DNA from: Pseudobdellovibrionaceae bacterium
Lineage (GTDB): Bacteria > Bdellovibrionota > Bdellovibrionia > Bdellovibrionales > UBA1609
Length of the DNA stretch: 64,000 nt
Assembly (NCBI GenBank): GCA_043757545.1
Contig: JAYVPG010000050.1
Location: 3,785-67,784, forward strand
Direction of reading: 5' to 3'
The notes beneath the pieces are model-generated. The model ran no database searches, was not told where the DNA came from, and was given only the letters and a program-made list of their open reading frames with translations. Below are positions 42,111 through 64,000 of this stretch, piece after piece. A program made the translations under genes and the position numbers. Each line of letters starts with the position of its first letter. The first letter of the stretch is position 1.

Positions 42111-42148
42111 TTGAGTATCCAAATTCCGAGCCGCTAGACTAGCGTACA

Positions 42149-44647: not shown

Positions 44648-45793
44648 TCAGTAGCTTAAGCTGTCACCGGGCCAGAGCGGAAGCTGTGAGCCCGGTTGGC
44701 GTTTTGGGATCTTGCTGTCCGCGCTGCTCACACAGCTATTGGTCTGACAGATTCCTGGTCGAGAGAGAAGCTTGAATCCAGTTTCGATATTACCAAGTGG
44801 CTGGTCGTTGCAGCTGTAACTCCGCTTGATGTTGCCGTCGGGTTCGCGAATGATGATGCTGCGATAGCCGGCACTACACTCCCAACCTTTGAATTGATTA
44901 AATGCAAACGCGTTGAAGCGCTCGGCTTGGTCCATGTACCACGCCTTACCTTGCGAGTCGGTCAACTCGACTTGGAAAATGGCCGGTACCTGCGCTTCGG
45001 TCTCGGGATCAATGACGATGAGTTTTCCCCATTTGGATTTTGGTCGTGTAAATTTGGGTGCCGCCACGTTCGCCATGCGTGCCCCGGTGTAATCTCTTTG
45101 TGGCATCCCCTGGCGAAGTCGGTGCAGCTGCTCCTCGGTGTAACCCTCAACCACTTGGGTTGCGCTGGGATTGCTCTGCGGCTTAAGAGTGACATTGACC
45201 CCGGCCTCCGCAAAATGAAGTGCGTCCTCCCAGAGAATTTCGAAGCGCTCAGGCACCATGACCATGTTGATGGTCACTTGGATGTCATGTTGCTGCAGGA
45301 AAATAAGCTTTTCTAAAAACTTTTCCCGTTGTGCAAATTCCTTGTGATAGCTCGCGGTGATGCTGACCCGGTGCAGTTTAGAGGTCGCCTGAGCGTATTT
45401 CTCAAACCAGCTAATCCCCGGGCTAAGGTTGCTGGTCATATGCACAGATTGATAATTGCACAGATCCGCGTCATCGGCGTAATGCTGCAAAATTTTGAGA
45501 TATCCCGGATGCATCGTGGGCTCGCCGCCACTAAATGAAATATGGAAGGAGCCGAAGCCCCGTTCACGGGCTTGACGCTTGATTTCATCGAGGGTGGAGA
45601 GAACGAGCTCAGTGGAGCGGTGGTCTTTCAGGTCCGAGCGAGCATAGGGCCAGCAATAGGAACATTTGTAGTTGCAGAAGCGGCCGAGCAGCCAGCTGAC
45701 GCAAAACAGGTCGCGATTGAGCAAGCTGATTTGCCCGACGCGAACGATGTCGTTCAATGGAATTTTATCAAAACGATATTTTGACCAAATCAA
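44648..45793 (-). CDS. radical SAM enzyme with a C-terminal SPASM/twitch-like Cys motif (conventional domain order)
   Basis: CNYKCSYC (CX3CX2C), SGGEPT, and C-terminal WECSAGYRSIIIREPDGNIKRSYSCNDQPLGNI...C...C. TTG start. Confidence 0.85.
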   Translation of the reverse strand: MIWSKYRFDKIPLNDIVRVGQISLLNRDLFCVSWLLGRFCNYKCSYCWPYARSDLKDHRSTELVLSTLDEIKRQARERGFGSFHISFSGGEPTMHPGYLKILQHYADDADLCNYQSVHMTSNLSPGISWFEKYAQATSKLHRVSITASYHKEFAQREKFLEKLIFLQQHDIQVTINMVMVPERFEILWEDALHFAEAGVNVTLKPQSNPSATQVVEGYTEEQLHRLRQGMPQRDYTGARMANVAAPKFTRPKSKWGKLIVIDPETEAQVPAIFQVELTDSQGKAWYMDQAERFNAFAFNQFKGWECSAGYRSIIIREPDGNIKRSYSCNDQPLGNIETGFKLLSRPGICQTNSCVSSADSKIPKRQPGSQLPLWPGDSLSY

Positions 45794-45889
45794 AAGGACC
45801 CCGCTCCACCTCTCGGTATAGTCAGCGCCTAGGGCCCAAGCAAGGGATTTCTCTTGACCCAGTTCAGGGCCATAAAGAAAGATTACGCG

Positions 45890-47323
45890 ATGAACCCGCC
45901 AAGCTCGACATTTTGCATTTTACCGTGGATTCACTTGTCCACTCGCCCGAACGGGCATCTGCGCGTGTGTTGCACGGCCAACGCATCCAGCGCGGGCGCC
46001 ACAAATGATAAAGTTTTTGGCGGTGAGGTTGGAATTCTTAAAAATGCCGATGGCAAGCCTGCAAATTTAAATCACACCGGTTTACTTGAAGCGTGGAACA
46101 ACGCCTATATGCGTGGCGTGCGTGTGCAGATGTTAAATGGTGAGGTGCCCGCGGCGTGCACCAAGTGTTTCAAAGAAGAAGCAGCCGGACATCGCTCGAA
46201 ACGCAATTGGGAGACTGAGTATTGGTCGTCACGAGTGTCGGTTGAAAATCTAGTGAAAGAGACCGCCTCCGATGGCCGGATTCAACCGAAAATTAAATAT
46301 GTGGATTTGCGCTTGGGCACGAAATGCAATCTGAAATGCATTATGTGTTCACCTCACGACAGCTCGCTTTGGGTGGGAGATTGGCGAAAACTCCATCCAC
46401 AGATTCAAAGTCCGAGCCTTAAAGAAGTGATGCAATGGAATAACAACGGCCAGATTGATGGCGCCTCCTATGACTGGCACGTTGAAAATCCTCAGTTTTG
46501 GGAAGAGCTCTACGCTCAGCTGCCGCATATTGATCAGCTTTATTTTGCCGGTGGCGAGCCGTTGATCATTGAAGAGCATTATACCTTGTTGGAAGAATGC
46601 GTTCGTCGGGGAGAGGCCGCGCATATTGAGCTTCGCTACAATAGTAATGGTTTGGTTTTGCCGGAGCGTTTATTTGATTTGTGGCGCCAGTTTCGCCGCG
46701 TGCGTTTTCACTTCAGCATCGACAGTATCGGTGAGATGAATCACTACATTCGCTATCCCAGCGCTTGGTCGCAAATCGAAGAGAACCTACATCGCTTAGA
46801 CAGGAGCGATATCAAGGTCGAAGTCACCGTGGCCTGCGCGGTGCAGATTTTAAATATATTTTATATTCCAGAGTTTATCGAATGGAAGCTGGCGCAGAAT
46901 TTCAAGAAGATCAATCCTTGGCCGCTCGGCGCGGGATTGATCAATTTTCATTTCGTTTATCATCCAGCAATGCTCAATGTGAAGGTCTTGCCGCCTGAAT
47001 TTAAGCAGGCCGTTCGCGAGAAGTACGAATACTACGTTAAGATTTTGGCTGAGCGATTCAAGAATCAGCCTGAGTTTTTTAAAAATGAATATGGTATTCG
47101 TCGGCTGATGGGCTTGGTGCAATTTATGGAGTCCGAAGATTGGTCGAATCGGATGCCGGAATTTCGCGAGTATATTCAGTTGATGGATAAGATTCGTGGA
47201 ACGGATTTTGCGACAACGTTTCCGGAGATGGTGAGTCTAATGCAAGTAGAGCACGCGCCTGCAAAATTCTCAGCGCCTCCACGTGTGACTCAATCTAGCT
47301 TTCCTACTGAAATTGCTCCTTAA
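45890..47323 (+). CDS. radical SAM enzyme with an N-terminal twitch/SPASM-like motif (paralog 1 of 9)
   Basis: FCILPWIHLSTRPNGHLRVCC; CTKCFKEE; CNLKCIMC; FAGGEPL; SIDSIGEMNHYIRYPSAW. The ORF opens at the TTG at 45854; the first ATG is at 45890. Confidence 0.85.
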   Translation: MNPPSSTFCILPWIHLSTRPNGHLRVCCTANASSAGATNDKVFGGEVGILKNADGKPANLNHTGLLEAWNNAYMRGVRVQMLNGEVPAACTKCFKEEAAGHRSKRNWETEYWSSRVSVENLVKETASDGRIQPKIKYVDLRLGTKCNLKCIMCSPHDSSLWVGDWRKLHPQIQSPSLKEVMQWNNNGQIDGASYDWHVENPQFWEELYAQLPHIDQLYFAGGEPLIIEEHYTLLEECVRRGEAAHIELRYNSNGLVLPERLFDLWRQFRRVRFHFSIDSIGEMNHYIRYPSAWSQIEENLHRLDRSDIKVEVTVACAVQILNIFYIPEFIEWKLAQNFKKINPWPLGAGLINFHFVYHPAMLNVKVLPPEFKQAVREKYEYYVKILAERFKNQPEFFKNEYGIRRLMGLVQFMESEDWSNRMPEFREYIQLMDKIRGTDFATTFPEMVSLMQVEHAPAKFSAPPRVTQSSFPTEIAP

Positions 47324-48383
47324 AAGCATCGAAACCCTTGCCGCAGGTTTTCCCGCAGACGAAGAGTCGGCCAGATTCAATACTCGTTTTGTCCCAGCTC
47401 TCGGGAATCGATTTCTGAAAAAATGGTCCGTTTAAAATTTCGTCGAGCGGATGGATTTTTGCATTCAGTGAGTTCAATCCCTCGGGGAGGGCCTCGATCA
47501 ATTTCCAAATCGGCGTCGTGCGTGCGGCGTAATACCAAGGATAGAGTTGATTGGCGGTCCAACAGCAAGGGAAGGCGAGTCCTTCGGCAGAAACGTATAA
47601 ACTTTTTTCTTTCGTCACTTTGCAATCGACGGGGGTCTGCGCGAAAAAATTCTTTAGGCTTCCAAAGCGTTCGACGATCTCATCTTCTCTTCCCAACGCT
47701 TTGTTGACATGGATCGGATTGGTGGGTTGCTCAAGGTAGTACTCGATCTCACCACTGCTGCTCAGAACTTCTTGTTGCGTCTTGACTGCAGCTCGCACAT
47801 TGCTAAAAAACCGCGCTGTTTTTTTAACGTTGAAATTCTTAAATCCAAGTTCATGGGCGCGCTGACGGGCCTCATCGATCTGATGTTCATTGTGGCGGAA
47901 GACGATAAAATCCCAATCGGCCCGGCCCCCAGCCGCGACAAATGCCTTCACACTTCTTAAAATCAAATTGAACTTTGTGCCTCGACGATAAATGGAATTG
48001 GTTTCTTCTAGGCCGTCGATACCAAAGCGAACGCGCACGCCGAGTTCAGCCAATTTGCGCCACCAAGTCTCGTCACGCCCGGAACCGTTGGTGAACATCT
48101 CAAGCTGAAGCGATGGGTTCACCGCGCGCAAATGGCTAAAAATTTCTATGGTCTCACTGGCGGCGATGGGATCGCCATAGTTGCCGCACATATAAAACCG
48201 ATTGAGCGAACGCAAAAACGATTCTGGAAATATCTTCTGAATATCGTCGACGCTCAATTCCACCAAAGGTAGCTGTGGATTGACCTTGCCGCCAAGTACG
48301 TTGCGCAGACACATCGGGCAACTCGCATTACAGCGGGTCGTGACCTCAAGGTGAACGGTGTCTATTTCACTAAGCTGATACAT
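47304..48383 (-). CDS. radical SAM/SPASM-type enzyme (conventional domain order)
   Basis: TTRCNASCPMC; CGNYGDP; C-terminal DCKVTKEKSLYVSAEGLAFPCCW...CGKTCGK. The 3' end overlaps the convergent gene by 20 bp. Confidence 0.85.
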   Translation of the reverse strand: MYQLSEIDTVHLEVTTRCNASCPMCLRNVLGGKVNPQLPLVELSVDDIQKIFPESFLRSLNRFYMCGNYGDPIAASETIEIFSHLRAVNPSLQLEMFTNGSGRDETWWRKLAELGVRVRFGIDGLEETNSIYRRGTKFNLILRSVKAFVAAGGRADWDFIVFRHNEHQIDEARQRAHELGFKNFNVKKTARFFSNVRAAVKTQQEVLSSSGEIEYYLEQPTNPIHVNKALGREDEIVERFGSLKNFFAQTPVDCKVTKEKSLYVSAEGLAFPCCWTANQLYPWYYAARTTPIWKLIEALPEGLNSLNAKIHPLDEILNGPFFQKSIPESWDKTSIESGRLFVCGKTCGKGFDAFKEQFQ

Positions 48384-48440
48384 GAGTGGATGTGAGCCAA
48401 ATCAATGAGGAGGGTCAACACCTAATCGGACGTTACGCGG

Positions 48441-50663
48441 TTAGCTGAAGACTTCGCGGGCGCTATGGCCCAGATATTCGCAGCGCGCCCCGAAACGCGT
48501 GTCTTCCCCATACAATAGAATTTCTTTGCTCTGCGAAAGTGCCGTCCGATGCAGGCTTGCCATAAAACTTTGCCCAGCCCGCTCAATCAACGAGAGGTCC
48601 CAGTTCATTTTCGCTAGGGCCGGAGTAAAATTAAAACAATTGCTGTACCAAATCGCGAAATTCCGTCCTCCGCTTGCCGCTATGATCGTGGCGGCAAATG
48701 TTGGATTGGCTAAGATATCGATTTGGTGAAAGTTCTTTTTTAATTGGCGAGCTTTTGAGTAGGTCGTAAAAAAAGCCTCTTCGCTTTCCCATGTGGTTAG
48801 CTCAGTCATCCATCGGTATTCAAAATCAGACTCATTCACCGTGAATTGAGCTTGGGCCAACTCAGGGGGAATATTTTGTCGAAGGCGGCGCAAAAAGGAC
48901 GGAAAATCGCGCCCATCCCAGTTTTCGAAAATATATTTTTTTAAAAAAAGTGCCTGAGCGGAAATATCAAAATAATGTAGTTCTGTAGCCTCGTGAAAAC
49001 CGTTAAAATCGAGGATATGTAAATCTTTAAAGCCTGCCGAAACCGATAAAACCGCGTCCATGCAGACGCGATTCTTTCTTCTCACCACGTCGCCTAAGCC
49101 TTCGGTGTTAAATAAAAAAACCTTACGTCCGAAATCGCCACCCTCCATGCAAAGATCATGTGCGATCGATTTTTGATGAGGCGAAAGTTCTAGGTCATCT
49201 AAGTTTTGCTCAAAGGTCGTAATATTGTCGAGAAGGCGTTCAACGGACTGTGGATTTTGTTCGGGATAGAGATATTTTTTCTCTTTGCGAACCGCGTCTG
49301 GCAAATTGGCGACTTCAAATCCTCGGCGCATAAACTTATCTAGAGCGTTCCAGCCGAAGACCCCGGGTTTCAGTCGAACTTCACCCTCACTGGGTCGAAT
49401 CCACAGCGGCGTGTAGTCGTCGTGGATGTTCTCGGCGCTACGTTTGGCGGCAATGATGTTTTGCGTTTCTAAACTCTTAAAAGCGAAACGGGGCCGGCCA
49501 CTTTCAATCCAGGCGCTGATTCGGACGGCAAAAAATTGATGATGCAGACCAAATCCGCGCTCTTTGCGGTCGAGAAGATGGCCCATCAGAGCGACTTCGG
49601 GCTTTGCATTTTTACAGGCCGCTTCGATAGACTGAAAAAACTTTTCCCCTGCGATGTTTCCAGGCGTCGAAATGGCACACCAATCGTAACCGGCCTCTGC
49701 ACATTCGGTTAAAATTCGCTGCAGAGAGTGATCGTCGTGAAATTTGACGACGTGATTTGAACGTAGCCTTAGGAAGTGAGTGGTCACCGCCTTAAGCTTG
49801 CGTGAGTATTCGGACGATGGAGAGCTTTCAAAATAGTCCCAGATCGCATAGGCAACACGTGGATTTTGGGCCTTGGGCTTCTTCGCGACGAGTTGAGATG
49901 ACGGACGAGCCTGAGCCTGCTCGAGCAGGTGTGCCTTGCCGCGTGCGAGAGCATCGTAGTACGCGGGACCGTAAGTTCCGTGAACAATAATGTGGATCCG
50001 ATCCTCAATGGAGTTATTCCACACGCCATGTTTATTAGAGATGTCCACGCAGAACGCCGTTCCGCCAGAGAAAGGGACGTGCCCGTAATTTTCAAAGAGC
50101 CAATGACAGTCTTTCGGCATATTCAGGGCGATGTTCAAAGGTCCCAGAGAAGTCATTCCATCGGGACGATCTTGATGAAACGAGATAAACCCGCCGGGTT
50201 CAAGCCACATGTATCTGACGCGAAAGAGTTTAGTAAAAAACCCTTTCGCCACCAAACTTTTCAGCCACGCGGTCGTCTGCGGGCAAGCGGCACTGGCGTC
50301 GGTCCATGCGTAGGGCACCTCCGCCTCATTCGCGTACCCGTAACTTTCAAAGGCGCGAGTTTTTTCGGAGTCGATTCCATGCAAGCAAAGACTCATCCAT
50401 CCCATGCTGTCACTCGCGCGATGAGGTACAAACAAATGCCGCGAAGCGCGCGCCTCGGCAATCATTTGTTCAGGTTCCCATTCCGGCAGTTGAACTTGGA
50501 GATATGGAATTTTAAGCTTTTTATGAAGCACGCGACCGTCGGTGATATCGCTGCAGTCTAGAATTCGTTCTTGGATGTACGAGGTCGTCCATTGATTCAA
50601 CTTGTCGTTGATCACGCTGCCAAATACCTGCGCGGGATTTATCGCCGGTTCGAACGTTTCCAT
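48441..50663 (-). CDS. fusion protein: Asp/Asn-beta-hydroxylase-type cupin domain plus a C-terminal domain of unknown function, paralogous to 55412..56596
   Basis: LEPGGFISFHQD...LNIALNMP...FCVDISNKHGVWNNSIEDRIHIIVHG resembles the AspH/LpxO (Asp_Arg_Hydrox) pattern. The C-terminal ~470 aa align by eye with the 394-aa ORF (AYAIWDY/FYAIWNR; FNTE; SGFKDL; HYFD; LFLKKYIFENWDGRDFP/LLFKKYMFEKWDGRDFP; FAIWYSNCFNFTPALA/FAVWYSNCFGFTPALA). The ATG at 50663 has AAGGAG 10 nt upstream; the ORF opens at 50867. Confidence 0.7.
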   Translation of the reverse strand: METFEPAINPAQVFGSVINDKLNQWTTSYIQERILDCSDITDGRVLHKKLKIPYLQVQLPEWEPEQMIAEARASRHLFVPHRASDSMGWMSLCLHGIDSEKTRAFESYGYANEAEVPYAWTDASAACPQTTAWLKSLVAKGFFTKLFRVRYMWLEPGGFISFHQDRPDGMTSLGPLNIALNMPKDCHWLFENYGHVPFSGGTAFCVDISNKHGVWNNSIEDRIHIIVHGTYGPAYYDALARGKAHLLEQAQARPSSQLVAKKPKAQNPRVAYAIWDYFESSPSSEYSRKLKAVTTHFLRLRSNHVVKFHDDHSLQRILTECAEAGYDWCAISTPGNIAGEKFFQSIEAACKNAKPEVALMGHLLDRKERGFGLHHQFFAVRISAWIESGRPRFAFKSLETQNIIAAKRSAENIHDDYTPLWIRPSEGEVRLKPGVFGWNALDKFMRRGFEVANLPDAVRKEKKYLYPEQNPQSVERLLDNITTFEQNLDDLELSPHQKSIAHDLCMEGGDFGRKVFLFNTEGLGDVVRRKNRVCMDAVLSVSAGFKDLHILDFNGFHEATELHYFDISAQALFLKKYIFENWDGRDFPSFLRRLRQNIPPELAQAQFTVNESDFEYRWMTELTTWESEEAFFTTYSKARQLKKNFHQIDILANPTFAATIIAASGGRNFAIWYSNCFNFTPALAKMNWDLSLIERAGQSFMASLHRTALSQSKEILLYGEDTRFGARCEYLGHSAREVFS

Positions 50664-50753
50664 TGAGTTGTCGCTCCTTCGTTGTTCTACTTTACAAAGC
50701 ACGGTAGGAGTGATGTCTAGGTCTATTTTATAACTTTGTCCGCAGGAGGGCCA

Positions 50754-52085
50754 TTGATCGAGCGCGCGAAGAAAAGCGGAAGTTTTTGCATCTATCCATT
50801 TACCCACCTCGCGACCAAAACTGAGGGGACCTTTAAGCTTTGTTGTCGCAGTGAGCCGATTGCGCATGTGGACTCGAGCTCAGCGCTTGAGACTTGGAAT
50901 GGCGAGATTTACCGTCGCGTTCGCCGCCAGATGCTCAACGGGGAGCGTCCTCCGGAATGTGATGATTGTTGGCGTTTGGAGGACGTGGGCACTCGCTCAA
51001 TGCGTCAACGTGCCGGGAACCCGTCGTTTCGGGATAGTCGCTGGAATCGACACTCTCATGTGCTCCAGAGTTGCGCCGAGGATGGCACAATGTCGATCAC
51101 CCCCAAAACGCTCGAAATGAAAGTCAGCAATGTCTGCAATTTGAAATGTCGCATGTGTAGTCCGATTGATTCGACTTCGTGGGCGAGTGAATGGCCCGAG
51201 GTCGAAGATCTGCATAAGGTCCACAACACTTGGGCCTATGAAACCGCCCGCGAATACGGTCTTAGTCAAAAGCCAAAGCTTGCGGGTTTTGAAGACAACG
51301 CGAAATGGTGGTCTGAGTTTGACGAAATGATAGAACATTTGGAACTGGTGGAGTTTGCTGGCGGTGAGCCATTGATCGACCCCATTCATTACCGCATTCT
51401 GAAATTGATGGCGCGACGTGGCGGCCATATTCGACTCAAGTACAGCACCAATTTGACCAAACTCTCCTGTCAGGGAACGCAAGTCTTTGATCTTTGGAAG
51501 CAGTTTGCCGGCGTTTCGGTTTATGCAAGCGTCGACGGTGTAGGCGCGGTGTATGACTACATTCGGACGGGAACGACTTTTTCCAAAATTGAGCGGAACC
51601 TTAAACTTCTGCAGGCCGAGAAATCCATTCCGCTCGATGAGCTCGCCATCGCGTGTACGATTCAAGTTTACAATTGTTTTCAGTTGCCCGAGATTGCCAC
51701 TTATTTTCAAGCATTGGGCGTGAAGCTGCACACGCACCGGGTCACCTTTCCGACGTTTTTAAGTGCGCAGATTTTGCCCCTAGATATCAAGGCGCGTTTG
51801 ACGGCGGAGATCGCTCGCTACATGCAGCGTACACCCAACGGCAAATACGAAGAGCAGATGTTTGCTCCCATCAATAAGCATTTCGAGGATCACTTGAATT
51901 TCATGAATGGTCGCGATGAGTCGGCGCTGCTTCCGGTGTTTAAGGATTTTACGGATCGTACGGATCGTTTGCGGGGAACGGATGTGCGAACGCTACACCC
52001 TTGGCTCGCCGAAGTTATGGATCGTATTCCCGTTCTACCGCGACCTGCTCTGAGTGAGACTGTCACCTTCAACAGCTTGTCTTAA
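50754..52085 (+). CDS. radical SAM enzyme with an N-terminal twitch/SPASM-like motif (paralog 2 of 9)
   Basis: FCIYPFTHLATKTEGTFKLCC; CDDCWRLE; CNLKCRMC; FAGGEPL; SVDGVGAVYDYIR. There is no ATG before the first Cys. The TTG at 50754 has AGGAGG 4 nt upstream; the ORF opens at the TTG at 50736. Confidence 0.8.
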   Translation: MIERAKKSGSFCIYPFTHLATKTEGTFKLCCRSEPIAHVDSSSALETWNGEIYRRVRRQMLNGERPPECDDCWRLEDVGTRSMRQRAGNPSFRDSRWNRHSHVLQSCAEDGTMSITPKTLEMKVSNVCNLKCRMCSPIDSTSWASEWPEVEDLHKVHNTWAYETAREYGLSQKPKLAGFEDNAKWWSEFDEMIEHLELVEFAGGEPLIDPIHYRILKLMARRGGHIRLKYSTNLTKLSCQGTQVFDLWKQFAGVSVYASVDGVGAVYDYIRTGTTFSKIERNLKLLQAEKSIPLDELAIACTIQVYNCFQLPEIATYFQALGVKLHTHRVTFPTFLSAQILPLDIKARLTAEIARYMQRTPNGKYEEQMFAPINKHFEDHLNFMNGRDESALLPVFKDFTDRTDRLRGTDVRTLHPWLAEVMDRIPVLPRPALSETVTFNSLS

Positions 52086-54236: not shown

Positions 54237-54325
54237 AGACCGAAAAGTTAGCACTAGTTGAAGCCCATGGGGAATTCAAAATCACATTGACAGTCAGGTT
54301 GCCGCGGTGATCGACTTCTGCGGCT

Positions 54326-55396: not shown

Positions 55397-55411
55397 GCGT
55401 GCTCCCTAAAT

Positions 55412-56596: not shown

Positions 56597-57871
56597 CTAA
56601 AGTGCCGCGCCCAATTGGCTGTGAATCGCCTGCGCCAGTTCCGGCGCCAAGGCTTCTAGATTTTCGCCGCGCGACTGATTGAGGATTTGAGTTTTATTCG
56701 CGAACTCAGCAAACGACTGTGCAAAAGTGTCCTGCCCAAACATGTACCGACTGAGATCGCGCACGCGCTCCCACGCTGAGTCTTGCTGATGAAAGGATTC
56801 GCGAGGATGCTCGATGAGCCACTGATCGATGCGCTGACTTGCGAGCTGTTTGAGCTCAAGAGGGAGCGCACGAATATTCAACCAATGCGGATGGTTTAAA
56901 ATATTCAAGTAAGGAATGGTGCGGAAATTTCGGCGTTGTAAAACAAAATCTAAAATTTCACTTAAATTTAAAATATTGTAAGCCTGGACAGTCACATGAA
57001 CATTGGCGTCCAGCCCAGGCATGCGGTCGGCCATATCGTCGATCAGATCCATATTGCGTTCGACATCGCTCCATCGCGTGGGATGGCGGATGTATTCATT
57101 CAGCGTGCCCACGCCATCCATTGAACAATTGAGTTTTACCTTTTTAAAATTCGACCAATGGCGAATCACTGAGGCGGGTAAAACAGTCAAGTTGGTATTG
57201 TATTTTAAAGTGAGTTCAGGCGCGCGATTGTTTTCCACCAAATACTCTAGAATTCGCACATGCGCTTTGCTCAGCATCGGCTCGCCGCCGGTAAAATAAA
57301 TTTTGTCGATGGTCTCTAAATGAGGTTTCAAGTTTTCGAAAAATTCTTCGCCCTCAAACCAATCCAGCTTCGCCAATCGGGCGCGCTGTTTTTCATCCAT
57401 GGGCGATTCGATCAGATCCCAATCCTCCAACCATTTTTGACTCGCATAGGGGTTGCACATGCGGCATTTCAGGTTGCAGAGATTACCTAAGCGCAGGTCC
57501 AAATAGCGCACCTCGACGGGAGTTCCCCCGTCTTCGGAAGTGATTTCTTTTAGAGTCGTAACGTTCGTAGAATAAAACTCATTCCAGGCGTGACGGGGAG
57601 AGCGAATGCCAGAGTCTTCCTCTTTAAAACATCGCGCACAAGCCGCCGGACGCTCGCCCGTGAGCATCTGTTGACGAATCTGCCGTTGTGACGACGCATT
57701 CCATGCGGCCTCGATCGAACCTGGCTTAGCCAGCGAAAACGAGGCCTCACCTTCGCGGATTAGGTTGAGGCCCGGAATGCTGTTACAGCAAAGGCGAATC
57801 TGGCCCGAGGAATTTGTCGCCAAATGCTTCCAAGCTAAGGCACAGTGGGTATCGGTTGGCGAATGGCTCAT
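56597..57871 (-). CDS. radical SAM enzyme with an N-terminal twitch/SPASM-like motif (paralog 4 of 9)
   Basis: HCALAWKHLATNSSGQIRLCC; CARCFKEE; CNLKCRMC; FTGGEPM; SMDGVGTLNEYIRHPTRW. Start is either the ATG at 57871 or the GTG at 57907. Confidence 0.85.
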   Translation of the reverse strand: MSHSPTDTHCALAWKHLATNSSGQIRLCCNSIPGLNLIREGEASFSLAKPGSIEAAWNASSQRQIRQQMLTGERPAACARCFKEEDSGIRSPRHAWNEFYSTNVTTLKEITSEDGGTPVEVRYLDLRLGNLCNLKCRMCNPYASQKWLEDWDLIESPMDEKQRARLAKLDWFEGEEFFENLKPHLETIDKIYFTGGEPMLSKAHVRILEYLVENNRAPELTLKYNTNLTVLPASVIRHWSNFKKVKLNCSMDGVGTLNEYIRHPTRWSDVERNMDLIDDMADRMPGLDANVHVTVQAYNILNLSEILDFVLQRRNFRTIPYLNILNHPHWLNIRALPLELKQLASQRIDQWLIEHPRESFHQQDSAWERVRDLSRYMFGQDTFAQSFAEFANKTQILNQSRGENLEALAPELAQAIHSQLGAAL

Positions 57872-57975
57872 ACTATTCGAATAGGGCGGGAAGCGAATAA
57901 AGTCCACTCCTTAAAATTTTCAGATTTTATCCAATAGGGAGTGGTGGTAGTTTTTATTTCTACGGGGACGGCCAG

Positions 57976-58869
57976 ATGAGTTCACAGGTTGCACTGCACA
58001 AAGATCTTCCCGATTGTTTTGAGTTTTACAATCTTGAGGGAAGCGATTTGGAGACTTTCGCCCAGCAGAGGCGAGAGGAGATGATCCGTCACTTCGAAGA
58101 CGGTCGGGTGCTGATTTTTGACGGCTTTCCAGTGGAGAATCTTGAATATTTCCTAGATCACCCCGGTCGCTGGTATCCAGAAGACATCCCCAATATCCAG
58201 GGACGCGATATCTACTCGGCCCCGTTTGATTCCAATCACCCGTTGTTGCAGGTTTGTAACAGCATCGACGACGTGCACCAATTTATGTTTCAGGTTCCGG
58301 GTTTCGAGAAGTCTTGGCGGTCTCTGCTGAATTCTCTCTTCAAGGGATATGGCTGGAAGAGTTTAGAGTTCAGTTACCGGTTTAATCATCTGGCGCTCGA
58401 TCGCATGCATCTGGATGTGCCGGAGACCCTTTGGGAGGAACATCAATTCCGCTGGTTTATAAATTTGGACCGCCGTGTAAGGATTCTGACTATCGGGCCG
58501 ACCATTTTCGATCTTGCTGAGCGCTACTGGGACAAGATGGGCTTGAGTCGGTTTACGCATCTGCCGGTGCATGAGTTCATTGGGAATTTGCGTCGGGAGA
58601 TTCTCGACAAAACAGTGTTTAAGGAACGCGAGCTGCCGCGTCACTATCTGACTCTGGATCCCGGGGCCATGTGGTTGAGTCATTCGTCGCAGATTAGTCA
58701 CGGACTTGTTTATGGACGCAAAACCGTATGCCTTGAGGGCAGAATTCAGCCGCACACTTTGAAAACTCCGACCAAGCACTTCAATTCGAAAATTCGTGTC
58801 CTAATGGAAAAAGGTCCGATGCCCGAAGCGATGATTGAAAAGATCGTGCAGCTTGAGGGGTTACGATGA
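57976..58869 (+). CDS. hypothetical protein; possible Fe(II)/2-oxoglutarate dioxygenase of the Kdo-hydroxylase (KdoO)-like type
   Basis: Size of about 300 aa, N-terminal FEDGRVLIFDGFPVE, an HxD candidate (RMHLDVPE) and a distal His (SHSSQISHGLVYG). Assigned from memory of the family, so low confidence. Confidence 0.3.
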   Translation: MSSQVALHKDLPDCFEFYNLEGSDLETFAQQRREEMIRHFEDGRVLIFDGFPVENLEYFLDHPGRWYPEDIPNIQGRDIYSAPFDSNHPLLQVCNSIDDVHQFMFQVPGFEKSWRSLLNSLFKGYGWKSLEFSYRFNHLALDRMHLDVPETLWEEHQFRWFINLDRRVRILTIGPTIFDLAERYWDKMGLSRFTHLPVHEFIGNLRREILDKTVFKERELPRHYLTLDPGAMWLSHSSQISHGLVYGRKTVCLEGRIQPHTLKTPTKHFNSKIRVLMEKGPMPEAMIEKIVQLEGLR

Positions 58870-59996
58870 GCAGTTTTTGTCCCTATGCTTTTCATCATTT
58901 GATGGTCGAGCCAACTGGTGAGGTCAGGCCCTGTTGTCGATTCGAGAAGCAGGACGGCGTCGCGGTAGATTTACAAGACTTACGGCAACGCATGTTAAAT
59001 GGCGATTCCGTTTCGGGATGTCGTCGCTGTGAAATCGAAGAGTCACTGGATATTCCAAGTATGCGGCAACGGGCCTTCAATACCGCGCATCTCGATACCA
59101 ATTCCGAGGTCTACCTGACCTCACTTGAGATTGCCGTCGGCCGAGTTTGCAATTTAAAATGTCGAACCTGTGACTCGCGCTACAGTACAAAGTGGGATGC
59201 GGACGAGCGGGCACTTGGGCGGAATCGCTCGATCCCGACTCACGATTGGGTGGAAAATACGCAGATCGACTTTGCCACGTTTGAACGCGTGCGAGCCATT
59301 AAGCTTTCGGGTGGGGAACCACTTCTCTCGGCTTCGCTTCCACGTTTGCTCGGTCGGCTTATTGAGTTAGATTTGGCGAAAAACATCGAACTGCAGTTTT
59401 TTACCAATGCCACGTTGAAACCGAATCGTGAACTGATCGGCTTACTTGAATCTTTCGGCAAGATTCATCTTTACCTCAGTATTGATGGGGTTGGTGCGGT
59501 TAATGAATATTTGCGACATCCATCCCGCTGGCCGGTCGTCGAAGATGTTGTTGATGGGTGGCTGAAGTGGCAAGCGCAGCATTCCAGTGTGCGTTGCTCG
59601 CTAGCTCATACCCTCAGCACGATGAACGTACTTTCGTTTGCAGACTTTCTTTTCTGGCGGCAGTCGCTCACGCCGCGTCCCGATCTGATGCTGCAGCTGG
59701 TGCATGGCCCGCAAATGATGAGCCTTGCCAACGTCAGCACGGAAATTAAAAAACGACTGGGTCTGGCGCTGGCCATTCAGAAAGAGAATTATTTTTCAAA
59801 GCACGCGACGGAGCCAACGGTAGAGCGGGCGTTTGCAAAAATAGAGGCGATGCTGGTGCGGCCGTCTACCAGTCCCATTGCGGCAGGTGACTTTTTTTCT
59901 GAAATTGGACAGGTCGATGTGTTGCGCGGAGAAAATTTTGCAGAGATCTTTCCCCAAGTGAGTCAACAGCTTCAGGATTGGACACCTCATGGGTGA
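58866..59996 (+). CDS. radical SAM enzyme with an N-terminal twitch/SPASM-like motif (paralog 5 of 9)
   Basis: FCPYAFHHLMVEPTGEVRPCC; CRRCEIEE; CNLKCRTC (59148..59171); LSGGEPL; SIDGVGAVNEYLRHPSRW. ATGA overlap with the upstream gene. Confidence 0.85.
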   Translation: MSSFCPYAFHHLMVEPTGEVRPCCRFEKQDGVAVDLQDLRQRMLNGDSVSGCRRCEIEESLDIPSMRQRAFNTAHLDTNSEVYLTSLEIAVGRVCNLKCRTCDSRYSTKWDADERALGRNRSIPTHDWVENTQIDFATFERVRAIKLSGGEPLLSASLPRLLGRLIELDLAKNIELQFFTNATLKPNRELIGLLESFGKIHLYLSIDGVGAVNEYLRHPSRWPVVEDVVDGWLKWQAQHSSVRCSLAHTLSTMNVLSFADFLFWRQSLTPRPDLMLQLVHGPQMMSLANVSTEIKKRLGLALAIQKENYFSKHATEPTVERAFAKIEAMLVRPSTSPIAAGDFFSEIGQVDVLRGENFAEIFPQVSQQLQDWTPHG

Positions 59997-61233
59997 AGAG
60001 ATGATCCACAGCGAAGAGACTTCAGAGACGCTCTGTCCGCTCCCATTTCTTCATACCTACGTAAAGGCCAATGGCAAGCTTGTGGCCTGTTGCGAGGCTC
60101 AGGAAACGGTGTTGTCGACCGACTTGGGTGGATTAGAGGATTGGAATAGCTCTTCTTATCGGGCGTTACGCAGTGAGATGCTAAATGGGGAGAAACCTTC
60201 AATTTGTCGCAAATGCTGGAAGAATGAAGCCGTGGGTTCTCCCTCGGCGAGGGAACAGGCGTGGACAGATTTTCGCGCAGGATTTTACAGCACAGATACG
60301 ATCGCAAGTTCAATGGAAGGCGAAGTTTCGCGCGCTCCTTCGTTCGTCGAAGTAAAATGCTCCAACTTCTGCAATCTCAAATGCAAGATGTGCCATCCGT
60401 CCTCGAGCAGTCGACTGAATGAGGATCGCGAGATACATGCTAAATACCAACCCGACTTAGTTTGGCCGAAAGTTCCGGTGCGTTCGGATCAAACAATTCA
60501 TGAATTGCTCTCGTTCAAATCAGAAGACTTGAAAGACTTGCGGGTGCTGCAATTTTCAGGGGGCGAGCCATTTCTGCACGCTCAACAGTATGAAATCGTA
60601 TCTCGACTCAGTGGCAAGCATAGCGCCGACATTTCATTGCGCTACGCCACCAATTTAACTACGTTTCCTAGTCGAGAATTACTCGGTCAATGGAGTCGTT
60701 TTCGTGCCGTCAACGTTAAGGTCAGTCTGGATGGGATTGATGACGTCAATGACTACATCCGTTTAGGCAGTCGATTTAGTGAAGTGATCAGCAACCTCCG
60801 TAGACTTGAACAAGAAAAATCAGCAAACGTTTCGCTTGGAGTTGGATTTACCGCACAGGCCTACAATATTTTTCAGATTCATGAGTTTCTCGATTACTTT
60901 AAAGACCTGTCTTTTAATGGATTTGTCGCCACACATCTTTTACATTTTCCGCGACATCTATCGATCGTGGTGTATCCGCCGCGGATTCGTGAGCGATTGA
61001 TCGAATATCTATCGAGTGGTTCAAATCCGAAGCAGGTAAACGATAAAATTCAATGGCTTCGGACCGAGCCCTTTGATGGACATCAATGGCGTCAGTTTTT
61101 AGAATTTACGCGGGATTTTGAAGCTAAATATAATGTCAGCGGTCGGCTGAAAATGTTTCTTACGCGAGCTTTTGGAAGTGAAATCGGTGATTTTTTGCAA
61201 AATGAAATGTCCAAGCAAGGTATCGGCGCATGA
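59989..61233 (+). CDS. radical SAM enzyme with an N-terminal twitch/SPASM-like motif (paralog 6 of 9)
   Basis: LCPLPFLHTYVKANGKLVACC; CRKCWKNE; CNLKCKMC; FSGGEPF; SLDGIDDVNDYIR. 8-bp overlap with the upstream gene. Confidence 0.85.
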   Translation: MGEEMIHSEETSETLCPLPFLHTYVKANGKLVACCEAQETVLSTDLGGLEDWNSSSYRALRSEMLNGEKPSICRKCWKNEAVGSPSAREQAWTDFRAGFYSTDTIASSMEGEVSRAPSFVEVKCSNFCNLKCKMCHPSSSSRLNEDREIHAKYQPDLVWPKVPVRSDQTIHELLSFKSEDLKDLRVLQFSGGEPFLHAQQYEIVSRLSGKHSADISLRYATNLTTFPSRELLGQWSRFRAVNVKVSLDGIDDVNDYIRLGSRFSEVISNLRRLEQEKSANVSLGVGFTAQAYNIFQIHEFLDYFKDLSFNGFVATHLLHFPRHLSIVVYPPRIRERLIEYLSSGSNPKQVNDKIQWLRTEPFDGHQWRQFLEFTRDFEAKYNVSGRLKMFLTRAFGSEIGDFLQNEMSKQGIGA

Positions 61234-62474
61234 AGAATAATTCCTCTTGCGGGTGGCCCAGTATGCAGGTGCGGCGGCGTGCGAATGGACAAGTCGCGCC
61301 GTGCTGCAAATTTGTAAATTCGGAAGATCGAGACGGAATGTGGCTCAAACCTCAACGTGACGGAACAACACTGAGCGCATTGTTCAGTTCAGCGTCGTTT
61401 GGCGATTTACGGCACCGGCTTGAGCGTGGAGAGAGCACCAAGGCTTGTGACTCGTGCTATAGGATGGAGGCCTCGGGTGCGAAGAGCATGCGACTCAAAT
61501 CTTATGGAAACAAATTGAGTGCGGGCCTTGGCGAAAAGCCCAGTCTGCGATCTTTGGAGCTGGAGCTTGGCAATCTCTGCAACTTGAATTGCCGAACGTG
61601 CAATTCAGAGCAGAGCACACTTTGGCTGGAGCAGGACGCGAAGCTCAACGCTCTTCATCCGGGTTTGGCTCGTCCAAACGGTGGTGGACTGACCCGTACA
61701 GAAATCGACTTTCTTGATGCCGAGGCCTTGAGTCGCCTTGAAGTTTTGTATTTGGCTGGCGGCGAACCTCTTCTGCATACCACGTTTGGTCCGGTTCTCG
61801 AGAAAGTGATCCAGTCGGGCAATCGGAGCTGTGCAATTGAGTTTTCAACCAATTGCACTCTTTTTCCGAAACCAAAAGAGCTGAATAATTTGCTCTCATT
61901 TGCGACGGTGGAAGTTTATTTGAGTATCGATGGATTGGGGGCCGAAAACGAATTCCTTCGCCCGCCCAGTTTGTGGCCAGTCACTGAAAGAGTCGTGGAT
62001 CAATGGGTTGAATTGGCCAGAGAAAATAAAAATGTACTTCTTTTTCTTTCGCCAACGGTGAGCGTTTACAATATTACCCGGCTTGGACGGCTTATGGATT
62101 GGTGGTTTGATAAACTGGGCGAACCCATTGAGCGAGGAGATCAGCGGTTACCGGTTAATTTTTGCATTTTAAATTCTCCCGAATATTTGCAGGTCGGCAT
62201 CTTACCGGAAGATATCAAAGCGAAGCGGCGTTCCCACTTTGCGGCAACCATCGAATCCACGTCGAACCGAAGGCTAAAGGCGAAACTGAAGGATTTAGAT
62301 TCACTTTTTGACATTCAGGCGCAAGAGCAACTGCAGCGATTTGTCGATTTTGAAAATGGTCTCAACGGTTTGCGTGGTGTAAAACTTGAGAGTCATCCCT
62401 TTCGAGAGCTGGTGGAACCTTTGATCGCCAGATCTGGTTTTTTAAATTCGCAGCCGACTATCGGTATCGGATAG
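61230..62474 (+). CDS. radical SAM enzyme with an N-terminal twitch/SPASM-like motif (paralog 7 of 9)
   Basis: SCGWPSMQVRRRANGQVAPCC; CDSCYRME; CNLNCRTC; LAGGEPL; SIDGLGAENEFLRPPSLW. ATGA overlap with the upstream gene. Confidence 0.85.
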   Translation: MKNNSSCGWPSMQVRRRANGQVAPCCKFVNSEDRDGMWLKPQRDGTTLSALFSSASFGDLRHRLERGESTKACDSCYRMEASGAKSMRLKSYGNKLSAGLGEKPSLRSLELELGNLCNLNCRTCNSEQSTLWLEQDAKLNALHPGLARPNGGGLTRTEIDFLDAEALSRLEVLYLAGGEPLLHTTFGPVLEKVIQSGNRSCAIEFSTNCTLFPKPKELNNLLSFATVEVYLSIDGLGAENEFLRPPSLWPVTERVVDQWVELARENKNVLLFLSPTVSVYNITRLGRLMDWWFDKLGEPIERGDQRLPVNFCILNSPEYLQVGILPEDIKAKRRSHFAATIESTSNRRLKAKLKDLDSLFDIQAQEQLQRFVDFENGLNGLRGVKLESHPFRELVEPLIARSGFLNSQPTIGIG

Positions 62475-63533
62475 TCTAAATCCTCGCATCCGATCAAACT
62501 CCGCGATCCATTGGGCGGCCCGCAAACCTAAACGGCCATATTCCGATTGGTTTTTTGCTAAATAGCTCTTGAAATATCCGGCATCCTCCGCCGGCAATTT
62601 GTCGACCACTCGCCGCAGCTCCGTCAATTGCTCATTTGGCAAAACTCGCAAGGCTAGATGATCGGGTCGAAGTAAGAAATGATTGATTCGTACGCCCATG
62701 CCTTGCGCCTTGCTCCAGCGATAGAGATCGAGCACATTGAAGGCATTGACGAGCTGAATGGTCGGTTCGATTTTAAAAAATATTTCAGCAGCCTTAAGTT
62801 TGAAGAGGATGGCCTCGATCTTTTCCCACTTCACTCCTCGAATCCATTCAAAGGTGTCGCCAAGTCCGTCGATGCTGCAGGACAATTCGATGCCCTTTAG
62901 TCCACGCATGGCTTCGATGTGCTCGTTCGAAATGAGTGAGACGTTCGTGGTAATGGAAAGCATTTTGTCTGGACACCGCTCCCGCCATATCGCAAAGAGG
63001 TGAAGGAGCGCGGGATTCGCAAATGGTTCTCCACCAATGATTCGCAATTTCGTCAGGTCTGAGAGAATGGGTCGAAGATCATCAAACGAATTCGCATCCA
63101 GCATGAGTCTTCGGCCCCGCGTCTGGGTTGGGGCTGGCCAGCTCAGTTTTTCGATGAGGTCTTTTTCGACGGCGTGCCACTTGCTGGAAAATCTGGGGCT
63201 GCACATCACGCAGACCATATTGCATACGTTCGTGACCGAGATCTCGAGCTCTTCAATGGAGTCTGAAGGTTCAGGGTACCGGTCGACACTGTTTTCTCGG
63301 ATACTGACTATGCCACTTGCTTCTTCACTGTCGCAGTCGCGACACTCGTGAACATACTCTCCTCTTTGCATCCGGGCTTTGAGCTCACTAAGGCCGGAGC
63401 CTTCTAGATATTTAAAAATATCGTCAGTCGATTCGAATGTACCAAGTGAACCGGCGTAGGAGCAGCACGGTTTAATCGCGCCTTCCACATCGATCTTGAC
63501 GGATTTCCATGGCATTCGGCAGATGGCGTTCAC
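62442..63533 (-). CDS. radical SAM enzyme with an N-terminal twitch/SPASM-like motif (paralog 8 of 9)
   Basis: ICRMPWKSVKIDVEGAIKPCC; CRDCDSEE; CNMVCVMC; IIGGEPF; SIDGLGDTFEWIR. GTG start. The 3' end overlaps the convergent gene by 33 bp. Confidence 0.85.
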   Translation of the reverse strand: MNAICRMPWKSVKIDVEGAIKPCCSYAGSLGTFESTDDIFKYLEGSGLSELKARMQRGEYVHECRDCDSEEASGIVSIRENSVDRYPEPSDSIEELEISVTNVCNMVCVMCSPRFSSKWHAVEKDLIEKLSWPAPTQTRGRRLMLDANSFDDLRPILSDLTKLRIIGGEPFANPALLHLFAIWRERCPDKMLSITTNVSLISNEHIEAMRGLKGIELSCSIDGLGDTFEWIRGVKWEKIEAILFKLKAAEIFFKIEPTIQLVNAFNVLDLYRWSKAQGMGVRINHFLLRPDHLALRVLPNEQLTELRRVVDKLPAEDAGYFKSYLAKNQSEYGRLGLRAAQWIAEFDRMRGFRLSDTDSRLRI

Positions 63534-63648
63534 GACTGATTCTCCTGCCGGTATTGCAGTTCACCACTTAGAGCATGTCAATTTAAGATGCTCTGCGTAT
63601 TCTATGAAGGGCCTGGAACCTTCGGATTGGAGATGGTAGGTAGAGTTT

Positions 63649-64000
63649 ATGGCGATCTGTTCAGCACCATGGCATTCACTCCTGATACGTTTTAACGGCG
63701 ACGTCGTGCCGGATTCTCAATTTCAAGGTCGTTATGGAAATATTCGTGAAAGCGATCTCGCTTATCTCTGGCAGTCTCCAGAGGCTCGGCTCGCGAGAAG
63801 TGAATTTGCGGCGGAAAAGTGGCCAGTCGCCTGCGCGCAGTGTGATCTAAAAGAGAGGAGCATTGGCCACTCTCGGCGGCTATTTTTTAACGACATTGTG
63901 GACCCGATTTTGTTGGAGACCGATCACTCTGCAGATGGTCCGCCAGACATCTACTATCTTGAAATCAATTCGTCGAATCTGTGCAATTTAAAATGTGTCA
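63649..64000 (+). CDS. radical SAM enzyme of the same family (paralog 9 of 9), 5' part only; runs off the right edge
   Basis: Absent from the ORF track because there is no stop in the window. The ATG at 63649 follows an in-frame TAG at 63637. Translation: MAICSAPWHSLLIRFNGDVVPDSQFQGRYGNI...CAQCDLKE...EINSSNLCNLKCV. The usual CC pair is replaced by PD. Confidence 0.75.
   Translation, partial: MAICSAPWHSLLIRFNGDVVPDSQFQGRYGNIRESDLAYLWQSPEARLARSEFAAEKWPVACAQCDLKERSIGHSRRLFFNDIVDPILLETDHSADGPPDIYYLEINSSNLCNLKCV

Follow-up and report, generated by a model that had tools for sequence, protein, structure and literature searches.

What does a bacterium do with eleven radical S-adenosylmethionine (SAM) genes placed side by side? 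The question is raised by a locus at the end of a 64,000-nucleotide stretch of DNA (hereafter the window) from a Pseudobdellovibrionaceae bacterium (GenBank assembly GCA_043757545.1, contig JAYVPG010000050.1, positions 3,785 to 67,784), in which positions 44648-64000 are filled by 16 consecutive long open reading frames (ORFs), g01 to g16, with gaps of at most about 115 bp and several overlaps. Eleven of the 16 are radical-SAM genes, and nine of these eleven belong to one paralog family, NCBIfam NF033640, here called N_Twi. Large phages carry the same kind of system, conserved yet hypervariable, and the locus appears to be its chromosomal form in Bdellovibrionota. As to what it makes, our preferred answer, to which we give a probability of roughly 40%, is that it carries out a long tailoring series on a carbohydrate, be it a sugar, a Kdo-like ulosonic acid or a cyclitol, destined for a surface glycoconjugate.

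The final ORF, g16, is cut by the window end at 64000, and overlapping public contigs, of which L001 is identical to the window over 3306 bp, were used to extend it. The block reaches at least 67.7 kb in window-equivalent coordinates, about 3.7 kb past the window edge. The complete g16 lies at L001:2955-4154 and encodes 399 aa that match both PF13186 and PF04055. It is followed by g17 (about 64845-66158 in window-equivalent coordinates, minus strand), the tenth N_Twi paralog and twelfth radical-SAM gene, then by g18, a polytopic membrane protein of 548 aa with no family match, and g19, a membrane protein of 145 aa; past g19 there is a 250-bp gap and then a divergent gene. The ORF layout agrees with the original prediction, made from the letters of the window alone, of 16 consecutive ORFs that run past its edge. 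Radical-SAM enzymes normally make up about 1% of a bacterial gene set, so chance is not an issue when they account for 12 of 19 consecutive genes over about 23.5 kb.

PF04055 scores above its cut-off in g01, g02, g03, g05, g07, g10, g12, g13 and g15, and the CX3CX2C motif is present in g01-g03, g05, g07, g10 and g12-g15, as well as in g16 and g17 on L001. One gene, g14, falls just under the PF04055 cut-off (27.0 vs 29.5 bits) but scores 227 bits against NF033640, a model with a curated cut-off of 170 bits that was scanned against the window proteins, with g16 as a fragment. The eight full-length members score 202-439 bits: g02 (45890..47323, plus strand) is highest at 438.7, followed by g10 (56597..57871, minus; 380), g05 (50754..52085, plus; 361), g07 (53010..54236, minus; 326), g13 (59989..61233, plus; 279), g12 (58866..59996, plus; 235), g14 (61230..62474, plus) and g15 (62442..63533, minus, with a public gene call starting at 63515; 202). 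The ninth, g16 (63649..64000, plus), is truncated in the window, where it contains the start of the CX3CX2C motif and scores 69 bits over profile positions 4-126 (the N-terminal third). The predicted count of eleven radical-SAM genes thus holds by PF04055, NF033640 and the full-length g16, and the nine ORFs that had been listed, with their start coordinates, as one paralog family came through the Pfam and NCBIfam checks as radical-SAM proteins of that family.

The two remaining radical-SAM genes of the window lie outside N_Twi. One is g01 (44648..45793, minus), with a Cys-rich, twitch-like C-terminal tail, a PF04055 score of 55.6 bits and the motifs CNYKCSYC and SGGEP; its top NCBIfam match, STM4011, reaches 56 bits, far under that model's cut-off. 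The other is g03 (47304..48383, minus), with a SPASM-like Cys region at its C-terminus, a PF04055 score of 43.3 bits, the motif CNASCPMC and YGDP as a variant of GGEP, which is invariant across the alignment of ten N_Twi paralogs.

N_Twi proteins have an unusual architecture: their Cys-rich twitch/SPASM-like region precedes the CX3CX2C core instead of following it. PF13186 passes its cut-off in g05 (26.1 bits, N-terminally), g13 (26 bits), g15 (22.8 bits) and g16 (37.5 bits), and below it in g02 and g10. The twitch cysteines C21, C39, C40, C102 and C105 (g02 numbering) are invariant or at least 90% conserved, and all five are kept in nine of the ten paralogs, so the region carries the cysteines for a predicted auxiliary Fe-S cluster. 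The exception is g16, the sole paralog without the conserved CC pair, which has PDSQ instead; its auxiliary cluster may be bound differently or may have been lost. Conservation also bears on the start of g02: the ATG at 45890 retains the conserved FCxLPW twitch cysteine and the automatic call (TTG 45935, 462 aa) removes it, so the former is the likelier start. Sequence searches found no solved structure for N_Twi.

Pairwise identity among the N_Twi paralogs is 22-34% over nearly their full length, which is more than the motif-level similarity that had been claimed for them. The accompanying suggestion of old diversification rather than recent amplification stood up better. We found no long DNA repeats between paralogs, only stretches of 44-58 nt (75-78% complementary) in the coding sequence of the CNLKCRMC motif. 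Single paralogs can also be matched to orthologs of their own in other loci, as with g02 (up to 79% identity), g10 (44%), g13 (43%) and g16 (39%). To judge from these comparisons, the paralogs are old, diverged copies.

The genes between the radical-SAM ORFs are the next source of clues, and g08 (54326..55396, plus) is the clearest of them. It aligns over its full length with StrB1 (PDB 1bwd; E 5.9e-22, residues 5-353 against 6-346), and its further solved relatives are SxtG (E 8.8e-19), AGAT (6e-17) and HsvA (5e-16). The catalytic Cys motif GGIHCLTLD aligns with GGFHCATLD of StrB1 (GGxHC), and C339, H218 and D220 are invariant in four orthologs. By homology and motif, we regard g08 as a bona fide StrB1/AGAT-family amidinotransferase. 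The original prediction had named this activity correctly, but the Pfam model it suggested for the purpose, PF02274, does not match g08. The substrate of StrB1 is an aminocyclitol phosphate.

Two genes share a domain. In g04 (48441..50867, minus), residues 157-295 of the 808-aa ORF match PF05118 at 39.0 bits (cut-off 22.6), and the C-terminal 211 aa are 40% identical to g09 (55412..56596, minus); public gene calls start g04 at 50663 (740 aa), and no solved structure matched it by sequence. This confirms the predicted AspH/LpxO-type domain fused to a domain of which g09 is a second copy. As for g09 itself, it has no Pfam, NCBIfam or PADLOC match and belongs to a sizeable uncharacterised family (758 representative clusters in an exhaustive hidden Markov model search). 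Its AlphaFold2 (AF2) model, with a predicted local distance difference test (pLDDT) score of 84, shows two Rossmann-like domains, and the C-terminal half may faintly resemble a methyltransferase fold. One distant g09 homolog (L088:10001-11287) sits in a flagellar cluster (FlgI, FlgK, FlaF, FlbT) beside two large TPR-GT41 proteins, the kind that glycosylates flagellin, and another is in a locus with DegT, GT4 and methyltransferase genes.

A fainter signal comes from g11 (57976..58869, plus), a probable Fe(II)/2-oxoglutarate (2OG) dioxygenase, whose match to PF11004 covers positions 5-259 of 275 at 18.7 bits (cut-off 25; E 1.1e-3). Its family comprises 14 homologs at 45-54% identity, of which five have a precomputed PF11004 match, and H145-L-D147 and H236/H242 are invariant in all 15 sequences; no PDB sequence matched it, even with a profile. 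For the predicted KdoO-like dioxygenase, the invariant H-x-D...H pattern and the five homologs are suggestive, the score of g11 itself stays below the cut-off, and g11 is at best plausibly a distant Kdo-hydroxylase relative.

The possible pyridoxal-phosphate (PLP) enzyme, g06 (52035..53009, minus), is a similar case. The motifs D134-x-A...G and F158-S-x-x-K162 are invariant in 15 homologs, and a profile search of the PDB returned aminotransferases only. The matches, however, are weak (3if2 at E 0.021, then AvtA, ACC synthase and TyrB at E of about 1; PF00155 at E 0.03), and the single sequence matched no solved structure. A small fold-type I PLP enzyme is plausible from these motifs, and with E-values of 0.02-0.03 the prediction is weakly supported. 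The automatic 290-aa call for g06 loses a conserved N-terminal segment that the 324-aa ORF keeps. Of the 15 homologs in related loci, 14 are immediate neighbours of an N_Twi gene, making g06 a recurrent N_Twi partner.

Is the locus a one-off? We scanned one genome per GTDB species with the paralog alignment and obtained 250 relatives, of which the best 80 were examined as loci. Nearly all of these 80 belong to Bdellovibrionales, Pseudobdellovibrionaceae and Bacteriovoracaceae, in line with a placement of the window in Bdellovibrionota. Complete chromosomes are among them, as is the cultivable isolate Bdellovibrio sp. HCB2-146, which has orthologs of g01, g02 and g03 on contig NZ_JBLEQP010000001.1 at about 1.88-1.90 Mb. 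Orthologs of g02, the most conserved gene of the system, occur at 57-79% identity in 52 GTDB loci, usually with g01 (58-76%) and g03 (38-65%), and this g01-g02-g03 triad is the conserved core. The extra radical-SAM paralogs around the triad vary in number and kind, with up to 10 radical-SAM genes within ±10 kb.

The neighbours of these Bdellovibrionales loci reveal something that is not visible from the window alone: related loci are rich in GT2 glycosyltransferases and also carry a carbamoyltransferase. Among 134 distinct families that neighbour the radical-SAM-rich segments and are not themselves radical-SAM, GT2 is by far the commonest (18 families), and Glyco_transf_7C, carbamoyltransferase, SDR and PseA/QueC/Asn-synthase-type PP-loop enzymes are also present. 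The unknown families c3 (motif ...VDGDN) and c5/c8 (which share one C-terminal domain) recur beside g02; the window encodes neither. As a stand-alone protein of about 230 aa, c3 lies beside g02 or an N_Twi gene in Bdellovibrionales and in phage RsoM2USA. It has no Pfam or PDB match, and no solved structure matched c5. That g09 might have arisen by joining c3 to c5/c8 was considered and rejected, as hhalign gave a probability below 1%.

The accessory genes travel with the system as well. Orthologs of g08 at 45-50% identity occur in loci L019, L092 and L093. The window, these three loci and most marine loci all have g06, an N_Twi gene and g08 next to one another. Homologs of g11 led to the radical-SAM-rich contigs L092 and L093, both of which carry g08 (47-50%), g06 (47-48%), g16 (36-39%), g10 (36-44%), an AspH domain (38-42%) and g09-type domains. 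L093 additionally has g13 (43%) and g12 (34%), and its g10 ortholog is at 44%; L092 additionally has g18-like and g19-like genes. At L092:18543-20465, a single gene encodes a 640-aa protein in which an AspH-type domain (PF05118) is joined to a radical-SAM domain, an arrangement which suggests that the hydroxylase and a radical-SAM enzyme act on the same substrate.

Relatives are not confined to bacterial chromosomes. A metagenome scan with an alignment of four amidinotransferase orthologs gave 120 relatives, mostly from marine samples and at 43-47% identity, and the best 80 loci were inspected; a scan of metagenomes with the alignment of the g11 family gave no match. Collinear single-strand clusters make up most of these 80, in the order g02 (53-59%)...g10-like...g11-g08-g03-like-g16-g06-g12-g13-g09-g04, with g11 on the opposite strand, and a shorter order also occurs: g03...g02...g08-g16-g06...g10-g01 (g01 at 60-64%). 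Orthologs of g06 have a median identity of 45% in 75 marine loci, and g10 is at 40-43%. Overall, the accessory set (g08, g06, g11, AspH, the g09 domain and specific N_Twi orthologs) recurs in more than 100 metagenome and IMG/VR loci, mostly marine.

In IMG/VR, the g08 amidinotransferase subfamily is present in 502 contigs and N_Twi relatives in at least 579, the best of them 45-65% identical to the g02 of the window. The usual viral layout is g03 (36-47%)...g02 (46-65%)...variable cassette...g01 (58-69%), where the cassette holds N_Twi, g03-like and g01-like radical-SAM paralogs together with g06, g04 and g08. Upstream are carbamoyltransferase genes, c5/c8-domain proteins and c3-repeat proteins of 900-1375 aa with the conserved pattern ...YDEPNA...HGV.G...VDGDN. 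Two to five tandem c3 copies are seen, for example, at L255:1-4125, L259:3921-6698, L278:3907-7080 and L291:1-3279. A PNP_UDP_1 (MTAN-like) gene lies inside the viral clusters between the g02 and g10 orthologs (L125:4178-4735 and 54 other loci). MTAN-type enzymes remove 5'-deoxyadenosine, an inhibitory by-product of radical-SAM enzymes, and the viral gene may do the same.

How sure is it that these contigs are viral? The contigs with radical-SAM genes are 20-340 kb long with a G+C of 0.28-0.43, and their viral status rests on IMG/VR membership, on a flanking DUF2201/VWA gene of a type common in large phages and matched in 706 phage records, on tail-fibre genes directly upstream of the g02 ortholog of L312, and on the cultured jumbo phage Ralstonia RsoM2USA, whose genes 347-350 are c5-like, c3, N_Twi and c3, all annotated 'hypothetical'. 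Hallmark genes (tail sheath, terminase and others) are mainly on a separate group of contigs with the amidinotransferase only. On this basis, we consider the radical-SAM-cluster contigs of the marine and IMG/VR set to be largely viral. The separate group (L229, L237, L238, L241 and similar IMG/VR loci) has a distant amidinotransferase (38-41%), no radical-SAM genes and a conserved myovirus-type block (tail sheath and tube, terminase, ribonucleotide reductase, clamp loader). Some contigs in metagenome-assembled genomes (MAGs) from outside Bdellovibrionota, namely L043 (Planctomycetota), L050/L054 (Crocinitomicaceae) and L080 (Gammaproteobacteria MED685), have g02 and g01 orthologs at 47-63% and radical-SAM arrays similar in arrangement to those of the marine viral loci; such contigs could be phage DNA that ended up in a MAG bin. 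The gene-neighbourhood survey that the original prediction had proposed therefore shows a system that is conserved yet hypervariable across Bdellovibrionales and hundreds of viral contigs.

What, then, is the system for? The data show family memberships, intact catalytic motifs, conserved orthologs and gene order in genomes and viral contigs alike, and the close pairing of N_Twi and PLP-like genes. In the carbohydrate reading, we infer which class of substrate is used, each reaction and its place in the sequence, and where the product is finally attached. The N_Twi enzymes would abstract hydrogen and so oxidise, epimerise, deoxygenate or rearrange defined positions, with the N-terminal auxiliary [4Fe-4S] cluster handling the second electron, as in the twitch enzyme BtrN. 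The adjacent PLP-like g06 would turn the resulting ketone or aldehyde into an amine, which g08 would convert to a guanidino group with arginine as the donor. The dioxygenase-type g04 and g11 might add hydroxyls, g09-type proteins might add or transfer a further group, and the membrane proteins g18 and g19 could place or export the product.

Several lines of evidence point to carbohydrate. Sugar and cyclitol pathways pair the same kinds of enzyme (StsC/StrB1 in streptidine, BtrN/BtrS in 2-deoxystreptamine, DesI/DesII in desosamine and KdnB/KdnA in 8-amino-Kdo), and the adjacency of N_Twi, PLP-like and amidinotransferase genes matches that logic. The context of relatives adds to it. Apart from the GT-rich Bdellovibrionales neighbourhoods and the glycan and flagellar contexts of g09 homologs, there are two phage cases. 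Campylobacter phages CP220 and CPt10 carry a block of 10-12 genes that includes five radical-SAM genes and a putative glycine amidinotransferase (Timms et al. 2010, PMC2853527), and in CP220 this block additionally encodes two GT-A-like (nucleotide-diphospho-sugar-transferase-like) proteins and a PAP2 phosphatase, with baseplate and PAAR genes upstream. Synechococcus phage S-SCSM2R (L254, PQ898602.1) has, apart from its inosamine amidinotransferase, another amidinotransferase, at 213353-214246, beside KdsA, KdsB and two 2OG-Fe(II) oxygenases, a neighbourhood that hints at a modified Kdo-type sugar. We also count in favour the intact radical-SAM motifs in 12 genes, the StrB1 homology of g08, the distant KdoO kinship of the g11 family, and the viral carbamoyltransferase and c3-repeat proteins (DGDN motif).

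Other results weigh against the carbohydrate reading. The hallmarks of an O-antigen or capsule cluster (nucleotide-sugar genes, initiating and elongating glycosyltransferases, Wzx/Wzy and an ABC exporter) are absent from the window and its 3.7-kb extension, Wzx/Wzy-type families are absent among the listed recurrent neighbours of the Bdellovibrionales loci, and most marine viral versions are without recognisable glycosyltransferases. The GT2 figure is a raw count of a gene type that is common in bacterial genomes, and c3 as a glycosyltransferase is a guess. The matches behind g06 as a PLP enzyme and g11 as a KdoO relative lie below significance thresholds, and Foldseek gave g09 only weak PDB matches (E 3e-3 or higher) that are divided between the methyltransferases AviRa and NNMT and GT-A-like proteins. 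The g02 model (AF2, pLDDT 70) matches only generic radical-SAM cores (anSME, SuiB, viperin, BlsE, MoaA) and so says nothing on substrate class. Literature searches on NF033640 or N-terminal SPASM/twitch enzymes found no paper and no published function; those on Bdellovibrio radical SAM found nothing relevant, and those on viral radical SAM nothing. The original prediction had proposed radical tailoring of either an amino- or guanidino-bearing small molecule or an envelope sugar, and this is still the best available reading, although it goes beyond what the genes themselves establish, and no substrate gene was found.

A wider proposal is possible, if doubtful: that this is an undescribed hypermodification system of phages and predatory Bdellovibrionota, in which an exchanging cassette yields strain-specific amino-, guanidino- and hydroxy-bearing sugar or nucleoside structures as an arms-race trait, with N_Twi as a new class of radical enzyme. 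In this proposal g01-g03, joined in other carriers by c3 and c5/c8, would form a constant frame, and the N_Twi class would comprise many distinct regio- or stereospecific activities.

The strongest rival to the carbohydrate reading is a free, diffusible natural product of the aminocyclitol, aminoglycoside or guanidino type, exported by g18 and g19. It would fit the nearest solved relatives of g08 (StrB1, SxtG and HsvA), the twitch radical-SAM enzymes known from aminoglycoside pathways, the window's want of a glycosyltransferase and the polytopic membrane protein that closes the cluster, and the authors of the 2025 paper on cyanophage S-SCSM2R read its PLP enzyme, radical-SAM 'maturase' and inosamine amidinotransferase as unexplained 'antibiotic synthesis genes' (PMC12801897). 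However, Pfam and NCBIfam scans of the window genes and Pfam scans of the extension found no scaffold- or cyclitol-forming enzyme (such as a 2-deoxy-scyllo-inosose or inositol-phosphate synthase, or a non-ribosomal peptide or polyketide synthase), no kinase, no glycosyltransferase, and no resistance gene or recognisable export family. Moreover, the triad is conserved at 57-79% across the order and also occurs in phages, which is unusual for an accessory antibiotic, and g18 and g19 are missing from the viral versions. We consider a free small molecule unlikely, though it deserves to be kept in view.

Less probable again is the modification of nucleic acids or nucleotides, in which the pathway would place a complex side group on a DNA base or nucleotide in an arms race with restriction or other defences. 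Its appeal is that it would account for the occurrence of one system in phages and in a predator that breaks down the DNA of its prey, and a hypervariable interior between conserved genes, widespread in large phages, is in keeping with it. Known phage pathways of this kind use PLP enzymes, radical-SAM enzymes, glycosyltransferases and carbamoyl-type groups (bioRxiv 10.1101/2023.12.21.572611), many viral clusters contain the nucleoside-phosphorylase/MTAN-like gene, and some Bdellovibrionales loci have QueC-like PP-loop genes. The MTAN-like gene, however, is equally explained by 5'-deoxyadenosine removal, and neither the window nor the recurrent neighbours listed (best 25 families) contain a homolog of DpdA/TGT, a hydroxymethylase, a base kinase or a DNA transferase. 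In CP220, the 7-amido-7-deazaguanine modification of DNA is attributed to FolE, QueD, QueE, QueC and DpdA3, i.e., to genes outside the module of radical-SAM and amidinotransferase genes (PMC10516641).

We give still less credence to modification of a protein or peptide, either as a variant of the ribosomally synthesised and post-translationally modified peptide (RiPP) pathways with its precursor encoded elsewhere or as decoration of side chains in a tail fibre, flagellin or outer-membrane protein. SPASM/twitch radical-SAM enzymes and AspH-type hydroxylases are typical peptide modifiers, the weak secondary NCBIfam matches are RiPP maturases, and possible targets or helpers are nearby in some relatives (the tail-fibre genes of L312, the baseplate and PAAR genes of CP220, an M16 peptidase near the L092 cluster). 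Yet no plausible precursor ORF fits the gaps or lies around the cluster, and none of the small ORFs near the L092 cluster looks like a Cys- or Gly-rich precursor peptide. There is no match to PqqD/RRE, a leader or other peptidase, or an ABC exporter among the 16 window genes and g16-g18 (nor in the part of g19 covered, with Pfam only), and it is hard to see what an amidinotransferase and a PLP transaminase would do to a peptide. An anti-phage defence island making modified nucleotides in the manner of viperin is very improbable: PADLOC models for prokaryotic viperin (pVip) match g01, g02, g03 and g10 at 19-46 bits and toxin-antitoxin modules lie a few kb upstream, but the pVip matches span only the generic radical-SAM core (approximately the first 100-160 of 257-262 profile positions, far from full length and far weaker than NF033640), no other PADLOC defence model matched among the ten proteins scanned, and phages themselves carry the system.

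The surroundings of the locus are unremarkable. G+C is even throughout the window, and before g01 in window coordinates there are ordinary bacterial genes (a 750-aa outer-membrane-like protein, toxin-antitoxin pairs, sensor kinases and a Gly-rich secreted protein). The gene for the 750-aa protein (42327-44579) is on the same strand as g01 and directly downstream of it, across a 68-bp gap. Its product has an N-terminal membrane anchor, faint FecR and Ig-like matches, a Pro/Ala-rich linker and a C-terminal F, as in outer-membrane barrels; no homolog of it adjoins g01 in other loci. Two pairs resemble toxin-antitoxin modules: an HTH_3/HTH_31 protein (41503-41913) with a 74-aa HicA-like ORF (41925-42149), and an HTH-type protein (35192-35503) with a 111-aa RelE/HigB-like ORF (35500-35835). 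A 526-aa secreted protein (39942-41522) has long Gly-rich tracts and no Pfam match, and its C-terminus (..AAGCGRIADP.., then a hydrophobic stretch and basic residues) resembles what we take to be a MYXO-CTERM-type sorting signal. Within the window, no Rfam match to a regulatory RNA and no tRNA gene was found, and promoter and terminator scans stayed below shuffle expectation.

If the proposal is right, the locus would give access to ten or more uncharacterised radical-SAM activities of NF033640 within a single pathway. Whether it decorates a glycan, modifies DNA or is a metabolite, the product could matter for recognition between phage and host and between predator and prey, and it would be new chemistry. 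It would also bear, through an analogous module, on the multiple radical-SAM genes of Campylobacter phages, an unexplained oddity since 2010. Two cultured carriers, HCB2-146 with the triad and RsoM2USA with an N_Twi gene and its c3 and c5 partners, make the question experimentally testable.

How does the locus compare with systems that are already known? The original prediction held that it is not a standard RiPP, O-antigen or aminoglycoside cluster, and that the visible part has no precursor peptide, transporter, glycosyltransferase, NRPS/PKS or peptidase; the Pfam and NCBIfam scans agree, the hallmark genes of all three cluster types being missing. Clusters of radical-SAM/SPASM RiPP maturases share with the window radical-SAM enzymes with auxiliary clusters, and AspH-type hydroxylases also occur there, but the twitch domain is permuted in the window enzymes. 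Another possible likeness is to the aminocyclitol and amino-sugar pathways, where the same enzyme types (a twitch-type radical-SAM enzyme, a PLP enzyme and an amidinotransferase) are adjacent; here too the position differs, as the twitch domain is C-terminal in those pathways and N-terminal in the window.

Among phage systems, the CP220/CPt10 block was described as an interchangeable module with no function assigned, in genomes with 11-12 radical-SAM genes each (PMC2853527). Taken as at least five radical-SAM genes and one amidinotransferase in a contiguous block, that description covers the window, with its 11 radical-SAM genes and g08. Gene by gene, however, the two are not orthologous: the amidinotransferases are 26% identical, gp083 and gp084 are 22-27% identical to g03, and the rest match at E 1e-5 or weaker. 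Furthermore, the CP220 module has no clear N_Twi member and no PLP-like, AspH, KdoO-like or g09 gene.

The marine and viral clusters are much closer. They share with the window orthologs of g02 (45-65%), g01 (58-69%), g03 (36-47%), g08 (44-49%), g06 (about 45%) and g16 (about 35%), and the collinear ones also hold homologs of g10, g12, g13, g04, g09 and g11; their genes carry no annotation or are labelled 'hypothetical'. Unlike the window, the viral clusters lie on one strand, have a G+C of 0.28-0.43 and are without g18 and g19, and they add the c3-repeat proteins, the c5/c8-domain proteins and the MTAN-like gene, all of which the window is without.

NF033640 itself describes the shared feature of a Cys-rich N-terminal twitch region followed by the CX3CX2C core, but it is an annotation family only, and ten paralogs side by side and a link to the other cluster genes are outside its definition. 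Two things were already known, namely that multi-radical-SAM tailoring clusters with an amidinotransferase exist, seen before and left unexplained, and that NF033640 had been catalogued. As far as our searches show, what is new is how large the array is, its dominance by the N-terminal-twitch family, a defined complement of accessory genes, and a single system of conserved core and variable cassette that is common to Bdellovibrionota chromosomes and hundreds of mostly marine viral contigs.

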